Below, in pieces: positions 21,149 to 60,305 of a DNA stretch of 64,000 nt (its first letter is position 1; each line of letters opens with the position of its first letter). The translations under genes were made by a program, and so were the position numbers. The notes beneath the pieces were generated by a model. The model did no database searches, was not told the DNA's origin, and worked only from the letters and a program-made list of their open reading frames with translations. Origin of the DNA: an uncultured Pseudomonadota bacterium (GTDB taxonomy: Bacteria > Pseudomonadota > Gammaproteobacteria > Natronospirales > REEB76); the NCBI GenBank assembly GCA_963774895.1, contig CAVZGN010000002.1, positions 454,454-518,453 of the forward strand, in the 5' to 3' direction.

Positions 21149-23611
21149 ATGTCAGTTCCAACCGAGCATTTAGACAAGAAACGCACGCGTCGTTCGCTCA
21201 AAACACTATATGTTGTGCTTGCTAGCCTGGCTGGACTCTTTGGCTTGGGTGTGCTGACAGTAGTGATTGCCTACCTAATGGTGGCTCCCGGCCTGCCTTC
21301 GGTCGCTTTGCTCAAGGATATCCGCCTGCAAGTACCCCTTAGGGTATATAGCCGCGATGGTCAATTGCTGGCGGCTTTCGGTGAGAAACGCCGCATTCCA
21401 CTTACCTACGACCAGATCCCCAAGCCGGTTGTAGAAGCCTTCGTAGCGTCAGAGGATGAGGACTTTTGGGAACATTCCGGGGTGAGCCTACGTGGTTTGT
21501 TGCGAGCCTCCATCCATCTGGCCCTCACCGGCCAAAAAACCGAAGGTGGTGGCACCATCACCATGCAGCTAGCGCGCAATTTTTTCTTAACCCCCAAGAA
21601 AACCTATACCCGCAAACTGAAAGAGGTGTTCCTGGCCCTTAAGATCGAACGCGAGCTCAGCAAGCAAGATATCCTCGACTTATATCTCAACAAGATATAT
21701 CTCGGCAATCGTGCATACGGTATCGGTGCTGCCGCCGAAGTTTATTACGGCACCGACGTCGGTCATCTGACATTGCCCCAAATAGCCATGATCGCTGGCT
21801 TGCCCAAGGCACCATCCACCGATAACCCGCTGGTTAATCCTCAACAGGCGCTGGTACGTCGAGGCTACGTGCTCGGCCGCATGCTTGCCGATGAGTACAT
21901 TACCAAGGATCAGTACCAGCAGGCCATGGCTGCGCCCATGACAGCTTCGTATCACGAGCCCATCGTGGGAGTGAATGCGCCGTATCTGGCCGAGATGGTT
22001 CGTGATTACATGACTTCAAAATATGGAGATGATGCGTACACGGCTGGGTACTCCGTGGTCACCACCATCGACAGCCGTCTGCAACCGTTGGCAGTACAGG
22101 CAGTTCGCGCAGGACTGCAGGATTATGACCAGAGACATGGCTGGCGCGGGCCGGTTGCGCAGGTAAATGTCGCTGCAGACAGCACGCATACAGATTGGGC
22201 GCAACTATTATCGGATTATGTACACGTGGGCGGCCTTTATCCGGCGCTCACCCTAAAGCTTGAAAGTCAAAGCGCACAGTTTTATGTGGATGGAACCGGG
22301 CTGGTTTCGGTCGACTGGAACGGGCTGAAATGGGCACGTCGCTATCTCAGCGTCAATGCTGTCGGTGTGTCGCCCAAAACCGCAGCGGATATCCTGAAGC
22401 CTGGCGATATTGTCTATTTGGATCACGCGAGCGACGGTAGTTGGTCCTTGTCGCAAATCCCAACTGCCCAGGGTGCGCTGGTGTGTATGGATCCTTTCGA
22501 TGGTGCCATTGCCGCTTTGGTAGGCGGCTTTGATTTCGATCAGAGCAAGTTCAATCGCGCTGTTCAGGCGCACCGCCAGCCGGGATCCTCATTCAAGCCA
22601 TTCTATTATTCCGCTGCTCTGGAAGATGGATTAACGCCGGCAACCATCGTGAGCGATGCCCCGGTGGTGGTGCAGGATCCGGCATTCGCCAATATTTGGC
22701 GTCCAGGCAACTATGAAGGCGATTTCAGTGGGCCGACACGTTTACGGCTGGCGCTGGCGCATTCTCTCAACCTGGCCTCAATCCGCGTATTGCAAACCAT
22801 CGGCGTGGGTTATGCCATCAACTATGCAGAAAAATTCGGCTTCGATGCGTCCGAATTACCCAACAATCTGACGCTGGCACTCGGCAGTGCCGATCTCACG
22901 CCGTTGGAGATGGCACGTGGTTACGCCGTTTTCGCCAACCATGGATTCCGCGTCACGCCCTATCTCATTCAACGCATCATCGATGGTTCTGGCCAGGTAG
23001 TGTATGCGGCCAATCCGGAGGTGGCCTGCGACAGCTGCAGTGTGGATGCCAGCACTAGCACACCTGCACCGACCCCAGCTCCGGCTGCCACAACATCCAC
23101 CGCTAGGCCCGCGTTCGCTCCACCTGCAATTCCACAATTTGCGCCGCAGGCCATCACGCCACAGAACGCCTGGATTATGACCAGCATGCTGCAGGACGTG
23201 ATCAAGTATGGTACCGGCGCTCGTGCCCAGGCGCTCGATCGCAGTGATCTGGCCGGCAAGACTGGCACCACCAATGATTGGTCCAATGCCTGGTTCGATG
23301 GCTACAACAATGACATTGTGACGGTTGTATGGTTTGGCAATGATCAACCATCCGAGTCGTTGGGCGACGGCGAACAAGGCGCTAAAGCGGCCTTGCCGGT
23401 ATGGATGGACTTCATGGGACCGGCGTTGCAATACGTGCCGCAGGTGCCTTTCGTGGAACCGCCTGGAATTGTGCAGGCGCGGATTGACCCCAAAACCGGC
23501 TTGCTGGCGAGCGCCAGTGATCCCGGTTCTATCTTCGAATTTTTCATGGCCGGGCATTTGCCGCCAAAAGCACCGGCCAAAAAGCCTGCCAACGGTAACG
23601 ATATCTTCTGA
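21149..23611 (+). CDS. mrcA: penicillin-binding protein 1A (bifunctional glycosyltransferase/transpeptidase)
   Basis: GT51 motifs (EDEDFWEHSG, GGGTITMQLARN) and transpeptidase SSFKP. ATG 21149 after GAGGGG. Has a Pro/Thr/Ala-rich insert near residues 640-670. Confidence 0.9.
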   Translation: MSVPTEHLDKKRTRRSLKTLYVVLASLAGLFGLGVLTVVIAYLMVAPGLPSVALLKDIRLQVPLRVYSRDGQLLAAFGEKRRIPLTYDQIPKPVVEAFVASEDEDFWEHSGVSLRGLLRASIHLALTGQKTEGGGTITMQLARNFFLTPKKTYTRKLKEVFLALKIERELSKQDILDLYLNKIYLGNRAYGIGAAAEVYYGTDVGHLTLPQIAMIAGLPKAPSTDNPLVNPQQALVRRGYVLGRMLADEYITKDQYQQAMAAPMTASYHEPIVGVNAPYLAEMVRDYMTSKYGDDAYTAGYSVVTTIDSRLQPLAVQAVRAGLQDYDQRHGWRGPVAQVNVAADSTHTDWAQLLSDYVHVGGLYPALTLKLESQSAQFYVDGTGLVSVDWNGLKWARRYLSVNAVGVSPKTAADILKPGDIVYLDHASDGSWSLSQIPTAQGALVCMDPFDGAIAALVGGFDFDQSKFNRAVQAHRQPGSSFKPFYYSAALEDGLTPATIVSDAPVVVQDPAFANIWRPGNYEGDFSGPTRLRLALAHSLNLASIRVLQTIGVGYAINYAEKFGFDASELPNNLTLALGSADLTPLEMARGYAVFANHGFRVTPYLIQRIIDGSGQVVYAANPEVACDSCSVDASTSTPAPTPAPAATTSTARPAFAPPAIPQFAPQAITPQNAWIMTSMLQDVIKYGTGARAQALDRSDLAGKTGTTNDWSNAWFDGYNNDIVTVVWFGNDQPSESLGDGEQGAKAALPVWMDFMGPALQYVPQVPFVEPPGIVQARIDPKTGLLASASDPGSIFEFFMAGHLPPKAPAKKPANGNDIF

Positions 23612-23654
23612 AGATTGTGCTAGGCTTTTTTTAAGCAATCTTGATAAAGAATAC

Positions 23655-24272
23655 ATGTCTCGACGTACTGCACCACGCACAGATGATTCGCGGTATTTGC
23701 TTGCCCATGAGGCCGCCCGTATCTTGGCTGAGGAGGGCGTACAGAATTTCCGCTTCGCCAAACGCAAGGCTGCGGAACGTTTGGGGTTTGATGTACGTAG
23801 CCTGCATCTGCCCACCAATCTGGAAGTGGAACAAGCCCTGGCCGAACACCAGCGGTTATTTCGTGCTGACTCCCAAGTCGAGCACATACGCCAGCTGCGC
23901 GAAATCGCGCGTGAGGCCATGCGCATGCTCAATGGATTCGATGCGCGCCTGGTGGGGCCGGTACTCGCCGGTACCGCTTCCGATCATGCAATCATTTATC
24001 TGCATGTATTCAGCGATGTGCCTGAGCATGTAGCTATTTTCCTCATGGAAAAACACATCCCCTATGAAGTATCTGCGCGCAAGTTGAAGACTGGCGCCGG
24101 CGTGCAGCACGAGTATCCGGTATATCGTTTCGTAGCCGGAAACACATCCATCGAACTCACGGTGTTTCGCGTGGATGGCATTCGGGAAGCGCCAGCGAGC
24201 CCGTTGGATGGCAAACCAATGCGGCGTGCATCCCTGCGCGAAATGGACGCTTTACTGGCTGCCGATGATTAA
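23655..24272 (+). CDS. conserved hypothetical protein (possibly degenerate nucleotidyltransferase-fold)
   Basis: 205-aa ORF from ATG 23655. The longer track ORF overlaps the ponA 3' end. GPVLAGTASDHAIIYLHVF vaguely resembles a Pol-beta NTase GS...SDxDL segment but lacks the acidic pair. Function not recognised. Confidence 0.45.
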   Translation: MSRRTAPRTDDSRYLLAHEAARILAEEGVQNFRFAKRKAAERLGFDVRSLHLPTNLEVEQALAEHQRLFRADSQVEHIRQLREIAREAMRMLNGFDARLVGPVLAGTASDHAIIYLHVFSDVPEHVAIFLMEKHIPYEVSARKLKTGAGVQHEYPVYRFVAGNTSIELTVFRVDGIREAPASPLDGKPMRRASLREMDALLAADD

Positions 24273-25894: not shown

Positions 25895-26104
25895 CTAGGC
25901 GGACTTACGCGCGTATTTTTTACGGTATTTGTCCACCCGTCCGGCGGTGTCCACGATTTTCTGTTTGCCTGTGAAAAACGGATGGCAACTGGAACACACT
26001 TCCACATGCAGGTCCCGGCCCAAGGTGGAGCGTGTGGCGAAGCTGTTGCCACAACTGCAGGTCACGGTGATTTGCTTGTATTCAGGATGAATGCCGGATT
26101 TCAT
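25895..26104 (-). CDS. rpmE: 50S ribosomal protein L31 (Zn-ribbon type)
   Basis: [19 protein letters not shown]...[10 protein letters not shown]. Start at ATG 26104. Confidence 0.95.
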
Positions 26105-26296
26105 GAAAGCCTCTGATACCAGATGATAAGTCACTTTGAAGGGCGCGCATGATAGCGCCCGCCCGGGTGTGCAGCAAGCCTGGGATGCTGGATACGTTCG
26201 GCGTGTTCCCGCTCACAGGCAATGGCTTAGTGTCCAAATATAATCCGGCGTCTTATGCAGGGCTTTTAACTAACTGATCAAAATGAATAAAATCGC

Positions 26297-26364
26297 TTGT
26301 CCACAAAAGCAGTGGATAAGTCTGTGGATTAAACCGCGCGCACACAGCTCTTTGCTTATCCGAG
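26297..26364. promoter_or_regulatory. cluster of DnaA-box-like 9-mers (candidate oriC core or DnaA regulatory site)
   Basis: TTGTCCACA 26297-26305 (+); TTATCCACT on the complement of 26311-26319; TAATCCACA on the complement of 26323-26331; TTATCCGAG 26356-26364. These are 8/9, 8/9, 8/9 and 7/9 matches to TTATCCACA, and they are flanked by AT-rich blocks. Confidence 0.4.
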
Positions 26365-26758
26365 CAGGACATGCGTCAAAACGGTTAAATCTTGTTCAAA
26401 TGATAAAATACTTGAAAATCAATAAGTTAAGAGAAGAATGGTTTTGTGCACGCAAAACATGTTGATGGGTTCCACGGCTCACATGCTGGCCAAGCTGATG
26501 TGCATAACCTCTTGTTCGTAGCTGAAAATTCGATTACATCGCCGATAATTTCTCGATCGCAGGGAACGTCGCCAATCGCTCCAATCGCACCCATCTAGAT
26601 TGCCCTTCGTTGTTATGGGCTATAGGTATCTCCTGATCTTCCGGGGTTATCAGGCCTTCAGCGTGAGGGTATCCGGGCAGGTCACTCCATCCACTCTGCG
26701 CCAACGCACCCTTGTACCCTTAGCGGCAAGCAGCGGCGAAAGGCGTTTTGCAAACGGG

Positions 26759-27961
26759 CTATTGAGTATGCTGGCTATCGGGGCGGCTGTCTGCAGCGGG
26801 CAGGCAGGGCGTTTCGGGTAAAAATCGTGCCTGCAAATCGTTGAGGAATGTGTAGCCAGTGGCGGTCGGTCGCCAACGACCATCAGTCAGATGCATGAGT
26901 TTCGAGGCTTGAGCCTGTTCCAGGGCGGATTGCACCTGCGCATAGGCTAATGCCGTGGTCGACTCAAAATCTGAGCGGCTGAACCCCTCCATCAAACGCA
27001 AGCGATTTAGCATGAATTCGAATATCCGATCCGCCGCATTTATCTCAGCGATGCCGCCGATGCACTCATCAGTGCCCGCCGCACGCAAGTAAGCCGCGGG
27101 TTGCCTTACTTTCCACATTCGCACGATGCGGCCGTGTTGCAGATCGCTTAATTTACTGTGGGCGCCTGCGCCGATTCCCAGATAATCACCATAACGCCAA
27201 TAGTTCAGATTGTGACTGCATTGTTGGTTATTGCGCGCATAGGCGGAGATCTCATATTGGTCAAAGCCCTGGTTACGGAGCAGTGCCTGGCAGCTCTGCT
27301 GCATTTGCCAGATGCTATCGTCGTCAGGCAGTACAGGTGGATGCGCATGGAAAAGCGTATTAGGTTCAAGCGTGAGCTGGTAATGGGAAATATGCGCCGG
27401 TTCGAGAGAGATAGCGCTTTTGATATCCGCCATGGCTTGTTCCACAGACTGTTGCGGTAAGCCGTACATGAGATCCAAATTGAAGTTCTCCAAGCCCGCG
27501 GCGTAGGCCTGTTCGGCGGCATATACCGCTTCTTCGGTAGAGTGGATGCGGCCCAATGTCTGCAGATGTTGCGCGTTGAAACTTTGCACTCCGATGGACA
27601 GACGTGTCACGCCTGCACTCCGGTATTCAGAGAAACTTCCATGTTCCACGCTTCCGGGATTGGCTTCCAATGTGATTTCCGCGTCAGCAATCAAAGGCAA
27701 GTGGCGCCGAGCTCCGTCCAGGATGCTGGCGATGGTTTCCGGTCTGAACAAACTGGGGGTACCGCCACCGAAGAAAACCGACTGCAGATGCCGCCCACAG
27801 ACTCTCGGAAGATCCTGCTGCAGATCGCGCAGCAGTGCTTCCGCATATTCTTTTTCAGGCAGCTTGCCATTGACAGCGTGGGAATTGAAATCGCAATACG
27901 GGCACTTGCGTACACACCATGGCAGGTGCACATAAAGCGAGAGCGGCGGAATCGAAAGCAT
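26759..27961 (-). CDS. hemW: radical SAM heme chaperone HemW (HemN-like, YggW)
   Basis: LYVHLPWCVRKCPYCDFNS radical-SAM CxxxCxxC motif. hemW-rdgB-rph neighbourhood. Confidence 0.9.
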   Translation of the reverse strand: MLSIPPLSLYVHLPWCVRKCPYCDFNSHAVNGKLPEKEYAEALLRDLQQDLPRVCGRHLQSVFFGGGTPSLFRPETIASILDGARRHLPLIADAEITLEANPGSVEHGSFSEYRSAGVTRLSIGVQSFNAQHLQTLGRIHSTEEAVYAAEQAYAAGLENFNLDLMYGLPQQSVEQAMADIKSAISLEPAHISHYQLTLEPNTLFHAHPPVLPDDDSIWQMQQSCQALLRNQGFDQYEISAYARNNQQCSHNLNYWRYGDYLGIGAGAHSKLSDLQHGRIVRMWKVRQPAAYLRAAGTDECIGGIAEINAADRIFEFMLNRLRLMEGFSRSDFESTTALAYAQVQSALEQAQASKLMHLTDGRWRPTATGYTFLNDLQARFLPETPCLPAADSRPDSQHTQ

Positions 27962-32093: not shown

Positions 32094-34247
32094 ATGGACC
32101 AGCCCGCTTCCATCTTTGATCGTGTTTTGGGGAAGCGCACCGCAGGTATCGATGTACTGTTAAGCAAGCTGCGCAGTTATCTGACGCAGGCCCAGGTCGA
32201 TGAGGTACGCCAAGCTTACGAGTTTGGTGCCCGCGCCCACCAGGGCCAGCGGCGGGTTTCCGGCGAACCCTATATTTCCCATCCACTGGCGGTCGCATCC
32301 ATCCTCGCCGACCTGCACATGGATCAGCACACCATCGAAGCAGCGCTGCTGCACGATGTCATCGAGGACACGCCCACCTTAAAAGAAGAGCTGGTCACGC
32401 GCTTCGGCCCGGAAGTGGCGCAGCTGGTGGATGGCGTATCCAAACTCACTCAGATCAAATTCACCAGCCGTGAGCAGGCCCAGGCGGAGAATTTCCGCAA
32501 GATGGTGCTGGCCATGGTGGATGACATCCGCATCATCCTGGTGAAGCTCGCCGATCGCCTGCACAACATGCGTACCCTGGGCGTCATGCCGCCGCCGAAA
32601 CGCCGGCGCATCGCCAGCGAGACCCTGGAGATTTATGCGCCCATCGCCCATCGCCTGGGCATGAACGCGGTGCGCCTGGAACTCGAGGATCTGGGTTTCG
32701 AAGCTCTGCATCCACTGCGCTACAAGGTCTTGAGCAAGCATCTCAAACGTTCGCGCGGCCACCAGAAAGAAATGGTGAAGAAAATCACCGAGAGCCTTAG
32801 CGGCGCGCTGCAACGTGAACATGTGGAGGGTGCGGTCGCGGGCCGCGAGAAACACCTGTATAGCATCTATCGCAAAATGCAATCCAAAGGTCTGTCACTC
32901 AATGAAGTCCTGGATGTGTATGGATTCCGCATCATCGTGGACAAGACTGATGCTTGCTACCGGGTGCTGGGCATCGTGCATAACCTCTACAAACCGGTGC
33001 CAGGCAAGTTCAAGGATTACATCGCCATACCCAAGGCCAATGGTTACCAGTCGCTGCATACGGTACTCGTTGGCCCGCAGGGAGCACCGCAGGAAGTCCA
33101 GATCCGCACTGCCGACATGGACAAGGTGGCGGGCTCCGGTATCGCCGCCCATTGGCTATATAAGACCGGTGACAATGGCGCCACGCCCACACTGCGGGCC
33201 CGCGAATGGCTGAAGGATGTGGCGGAGATGCAGCAGGGTGTCGGTAGCTCCCAGGAATTTCTCGATAACGTGCGCGTCGACCTGTTCCCTGACGAAGTCT
33301 ATGTATTTACACCCCAGGGCGACATCCATCGGCTGCCACGCGGCGCCACCGCCGTGGATTTTGCCTATGCAGTGCATACGGATGTGGGTAATGCGTGTGT
33401 GGCGGCCAAGATCAACCGGCGGCTGGTGCCGCTGCGTACGCCGCTGGAGAACGGCCAAACCGTGGAGATCATCACCGCCGCCAATGGTCGGCCCAATCCC
33501 GTGTGGCTGAATTTTGTAGTGACCGCCAAGGCACGCGCCAACGTGCGGCATTTCCTCAAGAACCTGCGCCATGAAGATGCCGTGGAACTCGGCCGGCGCA
33601 TGCTGGAAGGTGCGCTGGCGTCGCTGTCCATGAAACTGAGCCGCATTCCCCAGGAACACCTGCAAACCATTCTGCGGGAATTCAAACTGAAGGATCTTGA
33701 CGGGCTGTTTGAATCCATCGGTCTGGGCGAGCATCTGGCGCCACTAGTGGCGCGCCGTTTGTTACCTGTGAATGCGGGAGACAGCAAGCCGGCCAAGCCC
33801 AGCGCGCCGCTGGCCATCACCGGCACCGAGGGCATGGTGGTGAGCTTTGCGCGCTGCTGTCATCCCATACCCGGCGACCGCATCATCGGGGTACTCACCA
33901 GCGGCAAGGGCATCGTCATCCATCGCGACGATTGCGGCAACCTCAATGAATACCGCAATCAGCCGGATAAACTGATCGAGGTTCAATGGGAAAAGCGCAT
34001 CAAGCGCGATTTCCCGGTGGAGATCCGCGCCGACGTAGCCAACCAGCGTGGCGTGCTGGCGACCGTGGCGGCGGCCATCGCCGAGACCGGCTCCAATATC
34101 GAGCACGTGCACCAGCAGGAACGCGACGAACTGACTTCGGTGATCAGCTTTGTGTTCGGCGTCAAGGACCGGCAGCATCTGGCGCGCACGCTCAGGAAGC
34201 TTCGCAGCCTGCCGCAGGTGATGCGCATCCAGCGCATTCGTGCCTAG
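32094..34247 (+). CDS. spoT: bifunctional (p)ppGpp synthetase/hydrolase SpoT
   Basis: HD hydrolase (HPLAVASIL...LLHDVIEDT), RelA/SpoT synthetase, TGS and ACT regions. gmk-rpoZ-spoT synteny. Confidence 0.9.
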   Translation: MDQPASIFDRVLGKRTAGIDVLLSKLRSYLTQAQVDEVRQAYEFGARAHQGQRRVSGEPYISHPLAVASILADLHMDQHTIEAALLHDVIEDTPTLKEELVTRFGPEVAQLVDGVSKLTQIKFTSREQAQAENFRKMVLAMVDDIRIILVKLADRLHNMRTLGVMPPPKRRRIASETLEIYAPIAHRLGMNAVRLELEDLGFEALHPLRYKVLSKHLKRSRGHQKEMVKKITESLSGALQREHVEGAVAGREKHLYSIYRKMQSKGLSLNEVLDVYGFRIIVDKTDACYRVLGIVHNLYKPVPGKFKDYIAIPKANGYQSLHTVLVGPQGAPQEVQIRTADMDKVAGSGIAAHWLYKTGDNGATPTLRAREWLKDVAEMQQGVGSSQEFLDNVRVDLFPDEVYVFTPQGDIHRLPRGATAVDFAYAVHTDVGNACVAAKINRRLVPLRTPLENGQTVEIITAANGRPNPVWLNFVVTAKARANVRHFLKNLRHEDAVELGRRMLEGALASLSMKLSRIPQEHLQTILREFKLKDLDGLFESIGLGEHLAPLVARRLLPVNAGDSKPAKPSAPLAITGTEGMVVSFARCCHPIPGDRIIGVLTSGKGIVIHRDDCGNLNEYRNQPDKLIEVQWEKRIKRDFPVEIRADVANQRGVLATVAAAIAETGSNIEHVHQQERDELTSVISFVFGVKDRQHLARTLRKLRSLPQVMRIQRIRA

Positions 34248-34867
34248 TGCTTGTCAGGATTGGAGGACCCTTCACCGGCCTTGATGGCCAGCACCGCTTT
34301 GCCATTTTTATCCACGACCACGACTTCGCCTTGCCCAGGCGCGGGCAATTCCTTGAGCAATTTGCGCAAAGCCATCAACTGCTGGAGGTTGAGTGCACGT
34401 AGGCTGTGCCAGGCGCCTTTGCGCTTGTAAGCCGCGGCACCGGGGCCACCGGTGGTGCAGGCCATCAAACCGCCGTTATTGCATGTTTCCCGCTGCCATG
34501 TGAACCAGCTGTTGGTGCCGCATTCCAGCACCGCGCCCATGCGTTCCTGCACATCCAGATGACCATGGCCCGTGATGATCCTGCAGATCACCGCATCCGC
34601 TTTGTCGCTGCTGTTCGAGAACGGCTGGTTGAGGGCGACTTTCACCACCTGCATGGTTTTTATCAGTGCACGCGTGGCGGTAACATTGATGTTGCCCAAG
34701 TTGGCGTTCTGCGGCTTTTCTACCGATGCTGCGCTGGGGGAGGCGGTCATAGTGGTTGCTGGTGTGTGCGTTGATAGATTATCGGCACGCGCCGCTAACC
34801 TGCTGTTCAATATCAGCAGAGGGGCCAGCAACATGAGTATCCAACCCGACTCCGATACTTCAATCAT
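34244..34867 (-). CDS. secreted hypothetical protein, paralog A of tandem pair
   Basis: Start set at ATG 34867 (MIEVSESGWILMLLAPLLILNSRLAARA...). Shares the core ...KT.Q..K..L..P.SN....A.V.CRI...L.CGTN with the upstream ORF. No known family recognised. Confidence 0.5.
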   Translation of the reverse strand: MIEVSESGWILMLLAPLLILNSRLAARADNLSTHTPATTMTASPSAASVEKPQNANLGNINVTATRALIKTMQVVKVALNQPFSNSSDKADAVICRIITGHGHLDVQERMGAVLECGTNSWFTWQRETCNNGGLMACTTGGPGAAAYKRKGAWHSLRALNLQQLMALRKLLKELPAPGQGEVVVVDKNGKAVLAIKAGEGSSNPDKH

Positions 34868-35456
34868 GGGAGGGAACAGCCGGCGCTGTTGTGGATGCGG
34901 GCGCCGGCGCATAACCCGGCGGGTAGGGAATTTTTTCCAGTAATGCATGCAAGGCGGGACCATTGACACTGGTATGTAGATAATTCCCCGGCAGGCTGTT
35001 CAGCGTTGCGTTCAGCACGGCGAATACTTGTTCGTAACAGCCCGAGCTTGTACATGTGCTTCCGGATTGGCTACCCGCAGCTACCGATGCAAACATTGCG
35101 GTATGAAGCGCTGCGCGTTGTTGCGACAGTGTGTGGTTGGTGCCGCAAATCAGCCATTGCTTGATATGACTGCCGGCTTGATCCTCGATACGACACACCA
35201 CCACATTCGCCAGCTTCGGATCGTTGGAATAAGGCAGCTGCAGCCCGATCTTTATGGCCTGCAAAGTTTTCACGATATTCTTCTCACCGTGTACCTGGAT
35301 CGTGCCCAGATACATGGTGGCATTGTCATCCTTTGTGGTCTGGGATGTGGCATCGCCGGGCGCTGTATTGCTGTCGGCAGCGACTGCCAGCGGCAGGCCT
35401 AAAGCGGCGATGAGAAGGGTGAAGATAAAGGCTTTGATGCAGTCATGGTTATTCAT
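34860..35456 (-). CDS. secreted hypothetical protein, paralog B of tandem pair
   Basis: Clear signal peptide (IKAFIFTLLIAALGLPLAVAA|DS), a conserved two-Cys core shared with paralog A, and a Pro/Ala-rich tail. Confidence 0.6.
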   Translation of the reverse strand: MNNHDCIKAFIFTLLIAALGLPLAVAADSNTAPGDATSQTTKDDNATMYLGTIQVHGEKNIVKTLQAIKIGLQLPYSNDPKLANVVVCRIEDQAGSHIKQWLICGTNHTLSQQRAALHTAMFASVAAGSQSGSTCTSSGCYEQVFAVLNATLNSLPGNYLHTSVNGPALHALLEKIPYPPGYAPAPASTTAPAVPSHD

Positions 35457-35651
35457 ATATGGCTATCATCGGTATGACTGGTGGCTTCCAGTTGGAGTCG
35501 CGTGGACTTTCAGCGGACCTGAAAGCATTTTGATCTTTCGATTAAAGGATAGTACAGGTGCACGAGAAGTCGAGCTTACGCCAAGCCCCTGATAAACAAG
35601 GGATAAGGCTATGATAGGCATCTGTTGAAAACCGCTATACGGAGAAAGATC

Positions 35652-36032
35652 ATGAGCCGCACAGCTATCCACACCGATTTGGCTCCCAAAGCCATCGGCC
35701 CCTATTCCCAGGCAGTACGCGCCGGCAATACGGTGTACCTGTCCGGCCAGATCGGACTGGAGCCTGCGACCGGCGAGCTGGTCAAGGGTGGCATCGAAGC
35801 CGAAGGCCGGCGTGTGTTCCAGAATCTGAAGGCGGTCGCTGAGACCGCTGGCCAGGGGCTACCGCAGGTGGTGCGCTTGACTGTCTATCTGGTGAATCTC
35901 AATGATTTTGCCAAGTTCAATGAAATCATGGCGGAATATTTCCACTCACCGTATCCGGCGCGCGCCACCGTCGGGGTCGCCTCGCTGCCGCGCGATGCGC
36001 GCGTCGAAGTGGACGCGGTGATGGTGGTGTGA
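35652..36032 (+). CDS. ridA: RidA/YjgF family reactive-intermediate deaminase
   Basis: APKAIGPYSQA and PARATVGVASLP motifs. Start at ATG 35652. Confidence 0.9.
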   Translation: MSRTAIHTDLAPKAIGPYSQAVRAGNTVYLSGQIGLEPATGELVKGGIEAEGRRVFQNLKAVAETAGQGLPQVVRLTVYLVNLNDFAKFNEIMAEYFHSPYPARATVGVASLPRDARVEVDAVMVV

Positions 36033-43147: not shown

Positions 43148-43203
43148 GCGTCCAGGCTTACGGGATCATCACAGCATGATGCCATGCTTACGCGGTGCTC
43201 ACC

Positions 43204-44247
43204 ATGCATTCTTTGAACAGCAACACTGCTTCGGACATCCGCCATGACTGGACACTGTCAGAAGTCCAGGCGCTTATGTCGCAACCCTTCAATGATCTGT
43301 TGTATCAGGCCCATAATCTGCACCGCTGCTATTTCGACCCCAACGCGGTGCAGATCTCCACGCTCTTGTCCATCAAGACGGGGTCGTGCCCGGAAGACTG
43401 CAAATACTGTCCGCAGAGCGCCCGATACCACACCAGCCTCAAGTCCGAAAAACTCATGCCTGTGGCGGATGTGATCAGCCAGGCGAAGCTCGCCAAGGAT
43501 AACGGCGCCACGCGCTTCTGCATGGGTGCGGCCTATCGCAGCCCAAAGGATAAGGACCTGGACAAGATCATCGACATGATCCGTGCAGTACGTGCGCTCG
43601 ACATGGAGACCTGCGCCACGCTCGGCATGCTCACAGCCAAGCAGGCGCAGCGGCTGGCAGATGCCGGACTGGATTACTACAACCACAATATTGATACCTC
43701 GGAAAACTATTACCGCGAGATCATCACCACCCGCTGCTTTCAGGACCGCCTGGACACATTGCAGCATGTGCGCGCCGCCGGCATGCATGTATGCTGCGGC
43801 GGTATCATCGGCATGGGTGAGAGCCGCAGCGATCACGCCGCCATGCTGCACACACTGGCGACCTTGCCGAAGCATCCAGAGAGCGTGCCCATCAACCAGC
43901 TGGTGCAGGTGGAAGGCACGCCACTGCACGGCAGCGCGGCCGTGGATCCTTTCGACTTCATCCGCGTCATCGCCGTGGCCCGTATCCTCATGCCCAAGGC
44001 GCACGTGCGCCTGTCAGCAGGTCGTGCGCAGATGCACGACGAGATGCAGGCACTGGCGTTTTTCGCCGGTGCCAATTCCATCTTCTATGGTGAAAAGCTT
44101 CTGACCACCGAAAACCCGGAACAGGATGCAGACCGGCGGTTATTCGCACGTCTCGGCATCCACGCGGAAGCGTCTTCCGATGCGGCCGGCCGCAAGCCTG
44201 GAGCCGGCGCTGCGGATCAGCATGAGCAACGCCGCGCAACGTCTTGA
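43204..44247 (+). CDS. bioB: biotin synthase
   Basis: [11 protein letters not shown] radical-SAM motif. ATG 43204 gives an N-terminus co-linear with E. coli BioB; the track start is GTG 43195. Confidence 0.95.
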
Positions 44248-45406
44248 TGATTTGCTCAGCCCTGATCTGCAAGCGCTGAGAGCCCGATCGCTGTACCGCT
44301 CGCGGCGCGTGGTCGATGGACCTCAGGGCGCAGAGATCCAAATCGACGGCCGGCGTTGTCTAAATTTCTCCAGCAACGATTACCTGGGACTCGCCGGGCA
44401 TCCGGCTTTGCGCAGGGCGGCGGGCCGTGCGCTCGATGAATATGGCACCGGCAGCGGCGCTTCCCATCTAATCACCGGCCATAGCCGTGCGCACGCGGCA
44501 CTCGAAGCCGAGCTCGCTGAGTTCACACGACGACCACGGGCCTTGCTGTTCTCGACTGGGTACACGGCGAATCTGGGTGTGGCCGGCGCACTGCTGGGCC
44601 GCGGCGACCGGGTGTTATGCGATCGTTTGGATCACGCCTCGCTGCTGGATGCATGTGTACTCAGCGGCGCGCGCTTCCACCGATATCCGCACGCGCGCAC
44701 GGACACATCCGAGTGGCAAAAAATCCAGCCCGCTGGACGCACGCTGGTCATGACCGATGGCGTGTTCAGCATGGACGGCGACATAGCGCCGCTGCCGGAT
44801 TTGGCGCAAGCGTGCGCAGCGTCGGGCGCGTTTCTAATGGTCGATGATGCCCACGCATTCGGTGTACTTGGCCAACACGGCCGTGGCAGCCTTGAACATT
44901 TTGGCCTGGGGCAGCAAGAGGTACCCATATATATGGCTACGCTCGGCAAGGCTTTGGGCAGCTTCGGTGCATTCGTAGCCGGCAGTGAATCGCTGGTGGA
45001 AACTCTCATCCAGCACGCGCGCACCTACATCTATACGACCGCGATGCCCGCCTGCTTGGCCGAGGCCGGGCGCGCGGCGCTCAAGCTGGTGCAAACCGAA
45101 GACTGGCGGCGCGAGCATCTCAAGCGACTGATCCAACGATTCCGCAGCGGCGCCAGCCAACTGGGCCTGCCGATGCTGGATTCCATGACTGCCATCCAGC
45201 CGCTGCTGCTGGGTGCGCCGCAACTGGCAGTGACGGTCTCCGAACATCTGCGTGAGCGCGGCATGCTGGCGCTGGCGATCCGCCCGCCCACCGTGCCTGC
45301 CGGCAGTGCGCGCCTGCGCATCACGCTGTCCGCGGCTCACAGCGGGGAACACATTGACCGACTGCTGGAGGCATTGACAGTCGTGTTGACCGAGTTGAAC
45401 CGTTGA
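44222..45406 (+). CDS. bioF: 8-amino-7-oxononanoate synthase
   Basis: PLP-dependent class II fold with SMDGD and TLGKALG (Lys). Start at ATG 44222, overlapping the bioB end. Confidence 0.9.
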
Positions 45407-45430
45407 CTATTGCGCACCGCGCCGGGGTTT

Positions 45431-46273
45431 ATGTCGTTGAAACTGCACACTGAAACCACCGGCTACGGCCCGGATTTATTTCTGGTGCATGGTTGGTGCC
45501 TGCACAGCGGTGTATGGGGCAGCCTTGTGCCGGAACTGACGCGCAGCTATCGCGTCACCCGGGTGGATTTACCGGGGCATGGTCGCAGCCACGAGCTATC
45601 GATGCCAACGACACTCATGGAGCTGGCACATATGCTCCTGGAAGTCGCGCCGCAGAATGCCGCGTGGCTGGGATGGTCACTGGGTGGCCTGGCATGCTTG
45701 CGCGCGGCTGTGGATTTTCCGGGGCGCTTACGTGCCCTGGTGCTGGTAAGCACCACGCCACGCTTTATAACCGCTGCCGATTGGCCACAGGCCATGCCGC
45801 TGGAACAATTACAGGCAATGGTTACAGAGCTGCGGGACGATCACCAAAAAACCGTGCAACGGTTTCTGACCCTGCAGATGCGTGGTGATTCGGCAGCTCA
45901 GGCGACGCTGCGGCAGCTGCGCACAGTACTGCTATCGATTGGCCAGCCATCAGCCACGGATCTGGAACGCGGCCTGAAGTTGTTGCGCGACAGTGATGTG
46001 CGCGCCGAATTGCCACACATTCATATACCGACATTGGTCATCACGGGCGGCTACGACCGGCTGATACCGGTGCAGGCGGGCGAATTCATGGCGGCCGTTG
46101 TGCAGGGCGCACAATTCGTGGTCTTTCCCCAAGCAGCGCATGCGCCATTTCTGTCCCGTCCGGTGGAATTCCTGTTCGCATTACAGCAGTTTCTGCAGAA
46201 ACTTCCGGCAGTCCGGAGCGTGCAGGCCGGCGATCATCCGCCTATGTCTGCGCTCGGTGACCAACGAACATGA
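45431..46273 (+). CDS. bioH: pimeloyl-[ACP] methyl ester esterase
   Basis: Alpha/beta hydrolase with LVHGW and nucleophile GWSLGG. bioBFHCD order. Confidence 0.85.
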   Translation: MSLKLHTETTGYGPDLFLVHGWCLHSGVWGSLVPELTRSYRVTRVDLPGHGRSHELSMPTTLMELAHMLLEVAPQNAAWLGWSLGGLACLRAAVDFPGRLRALVLVSTTPRFITAADWPQAMPLEQLQAMVTELRDDHQKTVQRFLTLQMRGDSAAQATLRQLRTVLLSIGQPSATDLERGLKLLRDSDVRAELPHIHIPTLVITGGYDRLIPVQAGEFMAAVVQGAQFVVFPQAAHAPFLSRPVEFLFALQQFLQKLPAVRSVQAGDHPPMSALGDQRT

Positions 46274-47166
46274 ACGACAGCCACCATCAGGATGAGTTCT
46301 CGCTGGATCATCGCCAGCTGCGGGCATCCTTCGAGCGAGCCGCCCGTGGTTATGACGTGGCCGCAGTCCTGCAACGAGAAATCGGTACGCGCCTGCGGGA
46401 GCGGCTGGAACTAACCACGCTCATACCCGCGCGCATCCTGGATGTAGGCTGTGGCACCGGTGGTCAGATGCGGGCGTTAGCCAAACGTTATCCCGCGGCG
46501 CAGGTATGCGGCGCAGATCTGGCCATGAACATGCTGCTTGCCGGCCGCCGCGCCCATGGCTGGTTCAGCCGAAAACCGTTGGTGTGCGCCGATGCTGCGC
46601 ACCTACCGTTCGCGGCCACCAGTTTTGATCTGGCCTACAGCAACTTGATGCTGCAATGGTGTGATGATCCGGAGCGAGTATTCAGGGAACTGCGGCGCGT
46701 GCTGCATCCACATGCGCTGCTGCTGTTCAGCACCTTTGGTCCAGACACCCTCAAGGAATTACGCAGCGCCTGGCAAGCGGTTGATGGTTTCAATCATGTG
46801 AATCGCTTCATCGATATGCATGACATCGGTGATGTGCTGCTGCGCGCCGGTTTCGTGGAACCGGTGATGGATGTGGAGCATATGACGCTCACTTACACGG
46901 ACGTACATGCATTGATGCGCGATCTGAAAAGCATCGGCGCGCATAACGTCACCCACGGCCGGGCCCGCGGCTTGTACGGACGCGAGCGCATGCAGCAACT
47001 CGCGCAGGCTTACGAACGATTCCGCCACGATGGACGTGTGCCGGCCACCTATGAAGTGGTGTACGGCACGGCCTGGACACCTGCCTATATTCCTGCCGAC
47101 ATGTTGACGCCGGATGAAATCCAAACCGCCTTGGGCGGCCGGCAACCAACGGCTGGCGGTATCTGA
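46270..47166 (+). CDS. bioC: malonyl-[ACP] O-methyltransferase
   Basis: SAM motif ILDVGCGTG. ATGA overlap with bioH. Confidence 0.85.
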   Translation: MNDSHHQDEFSLDHRQLRASFERAARGYDVAAVLQREIGTRLRERLELTTLIPARILDVGCGTGGQMRALAKRYPAAQVCGADLAMNMLLAGRRAHGWFSRKPLVCADAAHLPFAATSFDLAYSNLMLQWCDDPERVFRELRRVLHPHALLLFSTFGPDTLKELRSAWQAVDGFNHVNRFIDMHDIGDVLLRAGFVEPVMDVEHMTLTYTDVHALMRDLKSIGAHNVTHGRARGLYGRERMQQLAQAYERFRHDGRVPATYEVVYGTAWTPAYIPADMLTPDEIQTALGGRQPTAGGI

Positions 47167-47868
47167 ATGCGCGGTTTCTTCATCACCGCCACCGACACCG
47201 GCGTGGGCAAGACGCTGGTGGCCACGAGTCTGTTGCGCGTCATCGCGGCCACCGGCCTGCAGGCTGTCGGCATGAAACCGGTGGCCAGCGGCGCCTCGCA
47301 GACCACCACAGGATTGCGCAATGCGGATGCCATGGAGTTGCAAGCCGCATCGACCACATCGCCGCCCTATGAAGATGTGAATCCTTATGTGTTTACTCCC
47401 GCCATCGCGCCGCACCTGGCCGCAGCTGAAGCCGGGGTGACCATTGAACTGCCGCGGATACTCGCGGCCTGTCAGCGGCTGTGCAGTGACGCCGATGCGT
47501 TGGTGGTGGAAGGGGTGGGCGGCTGGCAGGTGCCGTTGGCCGATGGTCTGCAGTTACCGGATCTGGCCCGGGCTTTGGGCTTGCCGGTGATCCTGGTGGT
47601 GGGGTTGCGTCTGGGTTGTCTTAATCACGCGCAGCTTAGCGCCCGCGCCATCCGTGAGGACGGTCTGAGACTCGCCGGCTGGGTGGCGAACGCGATCGAT
47701 CCTGATTTCGAACGCCGCTCGGGGAATCTCGCAACCCTGAAACGCGTGCTGCCAGCGCCGCTATTGGGGAATATCGCCTGGCAGCCTACGCTAAACCGCG
47801 AAACACTGGCAGACGAACTGGATGCGGCGAGCATCCTCAGGATCCTGAACGCTGCCCAGGCAGAATGA
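47167..47868 (+). CDS. bioD: dethiobiotin synthetase
   Basis: P-loop TDTGVGKT and EGVGGW motif. Confidence 0.9.
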   Translation: MRGFFITATDTGVGKTLVATSLLRVIAATGLQAVGMKPVASGASQTTTGLRNADAMELQAASTTSPPYEDVNPYVFTPAIAPHLAAAEAGVTIELPRILAACQRLCSDADALVVEGVGGWQVPLADGLQLPDLARALGLPVILVVGLRLGCLNHAQLSARAIREDGLRLAGWVANAIDPDFERRSGNLATLKRVLPAPLLGNIAWQPTLNRETLADELDAASILRILNAAQAE

Positions 47869-59432: not shown

Positions 59433-60305
59433 TTAGGCCATGAGCACGCCGAGTTTCTTGATGGCGTTATTTTCCAGCTGGCGGATGCGCTCTGCCGATA
59501 CGCCGTAGTGATTCGCTAGTTCCTGCAGGGTCGCCTTATTCTCGTCCAGCCAACGCCGCTGCATGATGTGGCGGCTGCGGTCATCGAGTTTCACCAACGC
59601 GCGCTGCAACTGTGCCTCGCCCTTGGTCTCGGAATCAGTGCGCTCCAGCGCCTGTGCGGGATCCGCGTTGTCATCCGCTTTCAGGTAAGCCACCGGCGCC
59701 ACACTGCGGCTGTCCTCATCTTCGGTCTCCGGCGTAGTGTCGAAAGTGATGTCCTGGCCGGCGAGCCTGGATTCCATCTCCATCACGTCTTCGGGCGAGA
59801 CTTTCAATTCCCGTGCGATGGTTTCCACTTCCTTGCGGTTCATCCAGCCGAGGCGCTTCTTGGAACTACGCAAATTGAAGAACAGTTTGCGTTGCGATTT
59901 GGTGGTGGCCACCTTGACGATGCGCCAGTTCTTGAGGATGAATTCGTGGATCTCGGCCTTGATCCAATGCACGGCGAACGACACCAGACGTACACCCACT
60001 TCCGGATCGAAACGTTTGACCGCTTTCATCAAGCCGATGTTGCCTTCCTGTATGAGGTCGCCGAGCGGCAGTCCGTAGCCCAGATAGCCGCGCGCCACAT
60101 GCACCACGAAACGCAGATGATGCAGCACCAGCTCGCGGGCCGCATCCAGGTCCTCGGATTCGCGGAAACGTATGGCCAAGGCACGCTCTTCCGGTGCGCT
60201 CAGAACCGGCACAGCGTTGACCGCCTGGATATAGGCATTCAGACTGCCGGTGGGGCCGGCCAGAATCAGCTGTTGTGAGCGGGGCATCAGAGCAGTACGC
60301 GCCAT
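59433..60305 (-). CDS. rpoH: RNA polymerase sigma-32 (heat-shock sigma factor)
   Basis: RpoH box QRKLFFNLR and sigma-70 regions 2 and 4. Lies downstream of ftsYEX, as in E. coli. Confidence 0.95.

Follow-up and report, generated by a model that had tools for sequence, protein, structure and literature searches.

DARS2 is the main device that times the re-activation of DnaA in Escherichia coli. The core of a DARS (DnaA-reactivating sequence) is defined by DnaA boxes I and II, which are oppositely oriented across a 5-bp gap so that a pair of DnaA molecules stands head-to-head and releases ADP, and by box III, which lies head-to-tail with box II (PMC6868365; PMC11724364). In E. coli DARS2, IHF binding needs local negative supercoiling (PMC11724364), and the essential Fis-binding sites FBS2-3 are located beyond the IHF site, beside box V (PMC8682772). 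In the literature consulted, reports of DARS2 homologues are confined to Enterobacterales, Vibrio, Shewanella and Aeromonas, species termed "E. coli-related" or "E. coli-proximal", with the mutH or uvrB position as their site. Here we analyzed a stretch of 64,000 nucleotides from an uncultured Pseudomonadota bacterium (contig CAVZGN010000002.1; the whole stretch is called the window below), in which a cluster of DnaA boxes lies between rpmE and hemW.

An initial annotation had offered two readings of this cluster, a replication origin or a DnaA control element outside the origin, of the datA/DARS or promoter-control kind. Our results supported the second one and sharpened it to the core geometry of DARS, with an IHF site and a distal box placed about as in DARS2. 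The sequence features make it very likely that 26297-26507 is a conserved site for a complex of DnaA, IHF and a Fis-type protein with a DARS core. By analogy with E. coli, this site probably also has the ATP-DnaA-regenerating (reactivating) function of the DARS2 type.

A putative DARS2-like element between rpmE and hemW

The genes rpmE (25895-26104) and hemW (26759-27961) are both encoded on the minus strand and leave a gap of 654 bp (26105-26758), which ranks second in size among the gaps of the window. The absence of a credible open reading frame (ORF) from this gap, claimed in the initial annotation, was borne out by the ORF list. The three clustered DnaA boxes with 8/9 matches at 26297-26331 are present as claimed, and all of the motif coordinates and sequences given at that time were correct on re-reading of the letters. 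A fourth box had been overlooked, which lies 202 bp from box I and has the full consensus. The parts of the element are as follows, with offsets counted from the start of box I.

26297-26305, plus strand: DnaA box I, TTGTCCACA, 8/9 match; placed and oriented like box I in DARS1 and DARS2 of E. coli; kept in all related elements
26311-26319, minus strand: DnaA box II, TTATCCACT, 8/9 match; inverted relative to box I, 5-bp spacer
26323-26331, minus strand: DnaA box III, TAATCCACA, 8/9 match; head-to-tail with box II, 3-bp spacer
26383-26397, no strand assigned: Fis-consensus site, GGTTAAATCTTGTTC, matching GNNYANNNNNTRNNC; +86
26417-26429, plus strand: IHF-binding consensus, AATCAATAAGTTA, matching WATCAANNNNTTR; +120
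26499-26507, minus strand (the overlooked box): distal DnaA box, TTATGCACA, full TTATNCACA consensus; +202
26297-26507, no strand assigned: the whole putative DARS2-like element, from the core to the distal box with the Fis and IHF sites in between, 211 bp

On the plus strand the core reads TTGTCCACA-aaagc-AGTGGATAA-gtc-TGTGGATTA. The sequence features that define a DARS core were found here: boxes I and II head-to-head at 5 bp, box III after a further 3 bp, and an intergenic site outside the origin.

The corresponding cores of E. coli MG1655 (NC_000913.3) are TTATCCACT-attcc-TGTGGATAA-cca-TGTGTATTA for DARS1 (813,107-813,141) and TTATTCACC-ttttc-TGTGGATAG-agt-TGTGAAGAA for DARS2 (2,969,135-2,969,169). 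In the fetched rppH-mutH locus (L083), the DARS2 core was assigned to 2136-2170 and not to a similar cluster at 2452-2486, because box V is a full-consensus box (PMC8682772) whose sole candidate is at 2347, and because box II of DARS2, unlike that of DARS1, is implied not to be of full consensus (PMC6868365). The orientation of the three core boxes and the 5-bp and 3-bp spacers are identical in DARS2 and in the window. In both, the IHF sites are found past box III, at a distance of about 90-120 bp from box I, and are oriented alike. The IHF-like sites of E. coli DARS2 are at +93 to +121, and one of them, AGTCAATGCATTA at +109, is oriented as the site in the window. A consensus-grade DnaA box follows at about 200-210 bp from box I (box V at +211 in E. 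coli, +202 here). Fis-consensus DNA inside the element and a non-coding, non-origin location are also shared (PMC4245941, PMC8682772, PMC11724364), and the IHF site roughly midway and the overall size of the element agree with the published description of DARS2 (PMC11724364).

The likeness to DARS2 ends at the motifs, beyond which there is no sequence homology. Where DARS2 has the IBS1-2 pair (+93 to +121), the window has just one IHF site, at +120, which is farther from the core by about one helical turn. The host is also only distantly related to the E. coli relatives from which homologues are reported. The core geometry equals that of DARS1 as well, whose box I is TTATCCACT, the 9-mer of box II in the window. 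In contrast to the element here, DARS1 needs neither IHF nor Fis to act, and it lacks a conserved IHF site and distal box (PMC11724364).

Two side observations concern these E. coli loci. The similar cluster in the rppH-mutH gap, L083:2452-2486 (MG1655 2,969,451-2,969,485), is a second cluster with the I-5-II-3 arrangement, TTATCCCAG ctttc TGTGGATAA cat GGTGTAAGA. About 300 bp separate it from the DARS2 core, and it appears to fall within the right half of DARS2, which is dispensable. The window itself has a bioB-bioF-bioH-bioC-bioD cluster at 43195-47868. By analogy with bioD-uvrB, a DARS1-like core was sought after bioD, and none was found in the 220 bp following it.

Conservation of the element in genome relatives

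Among 185,579 species genomes searched, the closest HemW is 60% identical to that of the window. Our genome sample consisted of 80 fetched hemW loci from 80 species, about 1.45 Mb. rpmE is downstream of hemW in 12 of the 80 loci and directly adjacent in 11. The three-box cluster was found in the hemW-rpmE gap of 10 of these 11, whose HemW proteins are 49-57% identical to that of the window. The ten carriers include Steroidobacteraceae, Woeseiaceae and further Gammaproteobacteria. Conservation of the box pattern in related genomes, which the initial annotation had named as a check, was thus seen in ten distant genomes.

The three-box pattern was then scanned over the same 1.45 Mb with up to 5 mismatches. 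The matches were the homologous elements and one locus of Saccharospirillum (L076). When the pair of boxes I and II was scanned with the E. coli loci included, DARS1 and DARS2 were also recovered. There is therefore no background to this geometry. The Saccharospirillum alexandrii cluster (L076:17223-17257) is DARS-core-like, TTACCCACA ccttc TGTGGACAA gcc TGTGCACAG, and stands in another context, directly after a terminator-like hairpin and 6 kb from hemW.

The gaps were aligned, and they were also compared in a gap-free register anchored on box I. Four conserved islands emerged from otherwise unalignable DNA: the core, the Fis site, the IHF site and a DnaA box in minus orientation (+202 to +208). 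These modules align without gaps across relatives, and the spacers between them carry no information. Within the core, box II is the best conserved and is usually TTATCCACA in relatives, and strong conservation of box III is confined to its TGTGGA half. The exact Fis consensus occurs at +85 to +87 in the window and in 7 of the 10 genome relatives. An IHF site with at most one mismatch is found at +119 to +122 in seven of the ten, and a distal box of the same quality at +203 to +208 in six; one further relative (L009) has its distal box at +193.

The comparison also separated the initially listed motifs into those that belong to the element and those that do not. The IHF site at 26417-26429 is indeed an exact match, but it is not significant by sequence alone, with two matches to WATCAANNNNTTR in the window against 1.07 expected. 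Its weight comes from the position being fixed in relatives, not from the match itself. The 7/9 box TTATCCGAG (26356-26364) and the palindrome GTTTTGTGCACGCAAAAC (26441-26458) exist in the window but are not kept in relatives. Correctly read but equally unconserved are the ATGA(A)TAAAAT repeats and the AT block on the left. The 7/9 box, the palindrome and the repeats were rejected as parts of the element for this reason. A second exact Fis-consensus match at +180 (26477-26491) occurs in the window only and is not conserved either.

We also considered that DnaA-box-like 9-mers had gathered by chance in an AT-rich spacer, since near-consensus boxes are over-represented throughout the window. There are 21 boxes with one mismatch against 9.0 ± 2.8 in shuffled sequences, and 17 against about 9 expected remain when the element is left out, an enrichment that may reflect oligonucleotide bias. 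The pattern TTATNCACA-N5-TGTGNATAA-N3-TGTGNATAA with 3 mismatches allowed, however, matched once in the window and in none of 100 shuffles. The layout is moreover kept to the base pair in lineages that share about 50% identity in their flanking proteins. The conservation data refute this explanation, which we regard as having practically no chance of being right.

Elements in metagenomes and their gene contexts

When metagenomes were scanned with the core pattern, more than 120 stretches matched. From these, 80 loci were fetched (L084-L163) and 67 non-redundant elements were scored. The same accessory sites appeared again at the same distances. An IHF site with at most one mismatch was present at +117 to +124 in 47 of the 67 elements (0.2 in control windows), the exact Fis consensus at +84 to +88 in 44 (0.3 in control windows), and a DnaA box with at most one mismatch at +200 to +214 in 57 (0 in control windows). 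The family consensus at +84 to +100 is the palindrome TGGTCAAAAATTGACCA, and the layout of the family, counted from box I, is Fis at +86, IHF at +120 and the distal box at about +204. The mean GC content of related elements is 31% over +84 to +135 and 51-56% in spacers and flanks.

The gene neighbours are more variable. The rpmE/hemW context was found in 43 of the 80 fetched loci. In 18 others, priA lies on the box I side and is transcribed away from the element (e.g. L097:4410, L127:6998, L139:4039). The remaining loci have other neighbours such as proS, a Kdo (3-deoxy-D-manno-octulosonic acid) kinase gene, pntB or an M48 peptidase gene. MutH and RppH were sought beside the 80 metagenome elements, and neither was adjacent to any of them. 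In E. coli, rpmE is the divergent neighbour of priA, and the priA-rpmE gap contains no DARS-like cluster. These contexts suggest that the priA/rpmE neighbourhood and the element have been linked from old. At eight loci outside the hemW-rpmE context, a gene for an extracytoplasmic function (ECF) sigma factor stands on the far side.

Because the modules are fixed in place and the spacers and flanks show no conservation, the module is, as far as can be read from such patterns, selected as a unit with fixed phasing, independently of the neighbouring genes.

The element and the replication origin

The first reading of the initial annotation placed the chromosomal oriC here, in an unusual rpmE-hemW context. 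The ingredients are indeed present, as the gap holds a low-GC block and an IHF site besides its DnaA-box cluster, and DnaA boxes and an IHF site are shared with the E. coli origin. An E. coli-type oriC also has a Fis site. The skew, the GC content and the gene content, however, did not support this reading. On the plus strand, GC skew is positive on both sides of the element (+0.020 ± 0.008 left, +0.0085 ± 0.007 right). The initial annotation had proposed to look on the complete replicon for a skew minimum at this coordinate; within the 64 kb, the minimum of the cumulative skew was at base 517, and the curve rises from there to base 59487. Among the 10 relatives, there is no consistent change of skew sign at the element.

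The low-GC block was examined for an unwinding element. The initial count of 16 G/C in 65 nt (25%) at 26376-26440 is correct, and the left AT block (26265-26295) has 23% GC. The left block is lineage-specific, and no AT-rich flank is conserved in relatives. The right block is filled by Fis and IHF motifs whose positions are conserved, and the DNA outside the boxes of related elements has 55-56% GC, is unconserved and contains no unwinding element. From these motifs, the 25%-GC block is composed of predicted Fis and IHF sites and is not an unwinding element.

The boxes also differ from those of an origin. There are only four good ones, and the key pair is head-to-head, in contrast to the head-to-tail arrays of oriC (PMC6868365). 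Arrays of low-affinity head-to-tail boxes are absent. GATC sites, of which E. coli oriC has 11, do not occur in the element. Besides, the module recurs in many unrelated gene contexts.

The gene orientation gave a mixed result. The initially noted strand bias is real, as the minus strand carries about 77% of the coding bases on the left and the plus strand about 62% of those on the right, but the orientation flips at about 30.2 kb and not at the element. The genes that flank the gap directly are co-oriented, and all six around it (gltA and rpmE to the left, and to the right hemW, rdgB, rph and a PP2C gene) are on the minus strand.

Origin-linked genes were searched by tblastn with E. coli DnaA, DnaN, RecF, RnpA, MnmG and RsmG against the window and 161 other loci (1.9 Mb). 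No marker was found in the window or in 160 of the 161 loci. The initial remark that no dnaA, dnaN or gidA was in view was right, and the 64 kb also lack recF, rnpA, gidB and parAB. The assigned genes of the window serve common housekeeping functions; they encode ABC transporters and include hemE, pyrF, aroKB, pilMNOPQ, mrcA, gltA, rdgB, rph, yicC, gmk and spoT, and further recG, ubiCA, bioBFHCD, a cytochrome oxidase operon, rpoH and ftsYEX.

The genes gidB, parA, parB and atp are usually near the origin. The sole tblastn match, to RsmG, is in a locus of an uncultured proteobacterium (L052:11468-16376, on a contig of 794 kb), where gidB (rsmG), parA, parB and the atp operon lie 2.4-5 kb past hemW-element-rpmE. 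This locus speaks for an origin, but it is the only one of the 161 with an origin-type neighbour, and its local GC skew shows no switch. Taken with the missing skew switch, unwinding element, GATC clustering and origin-linked genes in the window, an oriC at this site is very improbable. The case also advises caution in origin prediction, for DnaA boxes, an IHF site and low GC together are insufficient to call an origin.

Weighing the DARS2-type reading

Several observations weigh against a reactivating element of the DARS2 type. The conserved Fis site is at +86, on the core side of IHF, and not beyond IHF beside the distal box as FBS2-3 are in DARS2. The distal box points the opposite way from box V of E. 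coli. Synteny with DARS1 (bioD-uvrB) or DARS2 (rppH-mutH) is lacking, and the element stands at neither orthologous position. DnaA, IHF and Fis are not encoded in the window. A Granulosicoccaceae metagenome-assembled genome has hemW directly upstream of rpmE with a 387-bp gap and no DnaA boxes (L020:9344-9732); the element is therefore not needed for this gene arrangement. Finally, in 61 of the 80 metagenome loci the neighbour beside box I is either rpmE or priA, and its transcription leads outward from the element.

This last association would also be expected if DnaA, Fis and IHF controlled the transcription of an outward-facing promoter, that of rpmE here and of priA elsewhere. Several priA loci have their start codon only about 25-65 bp from box I, and E. 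coli DARS1 overlaps the uvrB promoter region. The spacing argues otherwise. Among relatives, box I stands anywhere from 82 to 227 bp away from the start codon of rpmE, whereas spacings within the element differ by about 2 bp. The Fis and IHF sites of the window are more than 200 bp upstream of the rpmE -35 hexamer, and no -35 or -10 is conserved inside the element. The module adjoins the unrelated proS, Kdo kinase, pntB and M48 peptidase genes as well, and the Granulosicoccaceae locus has the same gene pair without it. A chiefly transcriptional role is thus unlikely, although some part in transcription may exist.

A site of the datA kind would restrain initiation, by titration of DnaA or, with IHF, by hydrolysis of DnaA-bound ATP. 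In the MG1655 datA locus (glyVXY-queG; L205), the boxes are at 1178, 1245, 1407 and 1419 and the IHF site at 1310. The boxes flank this single IHF site at about 55-85 bp, so that the broad box-IHF-box layout, with comparable distances, is shared with the window, and both would be DnaA-controlling loci outside the origin. The proposed mechanism of datA is an IHF-dependent looping between the groups of boxes (PMC11724364). However, datA has no I-5-II-3-III cluster and its only inverted pair has a 3-bp spacer, whereas the spacing and orientation of the cluster in the window agree to the base with those of DARS1 and DARS2. The arrangement of the essential datA boxes 2, 3 and 7 around one IHF site was not found in the window, no Fis requirement of datA is described in the cited literature, and its activity, ATP hydrolysis, is opposite to that of DARS. 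We consider a datA-like function quite unlikely.

Proposed mechanism

A DARS2-type reactivating element would work as follows, based on what has been described for E. coli (PMC4245941, PMC6868365, PMC8682772, PMC11724364). ADP-DnaA would bind to boxes I-III, and the DnaA pair standing head-to-head on boxes I and II would lose its ADP. IHF may introduce a U-turn centred near +126, which would fold the distal arm and its DnaA box onto the core. With 82 bp separating it from the bend, this box would then face about +44, just past box III. A dimer, probably of Fis, at +93 would abut the IHF site and may stabilise or activate the complex. The apo-DnaA would take up ATP again, and the initiation potential would rise at an oriC located elsewhere.

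The element lies behind the rpmE promoter, which fires outward, and hemW is transcribed towards it. An effect of read-through transcription is documented for E. coli datA. We speculate that negative supercoiling generated by this promoter, or transcripts running on from hemW, could change the local supercoiling or tune the occupancy of the IHF site here.

Distribution and significance

A literature search returned no DARS-type element by rpmE, hemW or priA, nor in these lineages, with the reach of the homology survey of Fujimitsu et al. 2009 unchecked. On the sequence evidence, the core is clearly DARS-like, while the accessory region appears rearranged and the distribution far wider than described. 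This suggests that a cis-acting DNA site driving the cycle between DnaA-ADP and DnaA-ATP is much more widespread than reported.

The natural variation marks what is probably under selection: the 5-bp and 3-bp core spacers, the phase of the IHF site, the distal DnaA box and a repositioned Fis-type palindrome. These conserved features are testable constraints on the looped-complex model of DARS2. The layout is also a sequence signature by which such elements can be found where replication control is unstudied.

A broader proposal is that these elements belong to a class of DARS2-type modules that is old and widely distributed, keeps a fixed helical phasing of its sites, and occurs in basal Gammaproteobacteria and in many uncultured proteobacteria, preferentially directly upstream of rpmE or priA. 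We put this forward tentatively, as a possibility somewhat short of probable. If it is true, the recycling of ADP-DnaA that depends on IHF and Fis would be no speciality of the relatives of E. coli, and the E. coli layout, with Fis beyond IHF and a site at mutH, would be a derived variant. A site behind the growth-rate-controlled promoter of a ribosomal protein gene could then couple DnaA reactivation to ribosome synthesis via negative supercoiling.

Other features of the gap and the window

The gap contains a further feature beside the element.

26141-26177, minus strand: probable rpmE promoter, -35 TTGCTG, 17-bp spacer, -10 TATCAT, GC-rich discriminator GCGCGCCC

The call is based on a block, CTTG...TAnAnT...CGCGCCC, that is conserved across the aligned intergenic regions. 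The probable promoter, named from this conservation, is a neighbour of the DnaA-box element and no part of it. A scan of the gap for promoters and terminators otherwise gave only weak promoter-like matches on the plus strand, and no terminator of hemW. A non-coding RNA in the gap was rejected, as Rfam gave no match across the window at gathering thresholds and none in 26050-26800 at E <= 1.

From the distal box to the stop codon of hemW there are about 250 bp (26508-26758). In the genome relatives this distance is far shorter, 9 to about 140 bp, with about 50 bp in several. The segment 26508-26758 showed no convincing ORF, no Rfam match and no meaningful repeats, and its minus-strand RNA was no more stable in folding than shuffled sequences (z = +1.2). 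We treated it as a lineage-specific spacer.

Elsewhere in the window, the ORF at 23325-24272 between mrcA and gltA encodes at most 315 aa, matches no Pfam family and probably has its real start later. The largest stretch of the window without an assigned gene is 34244-36028. Its ORFs at 34244-34969 and 34860-35456 match no Pfam family. The 1059-bp gap that follows upstream of recG (34970-36028) carries DnaA boxes with one mismatch at 34975 and 35665.

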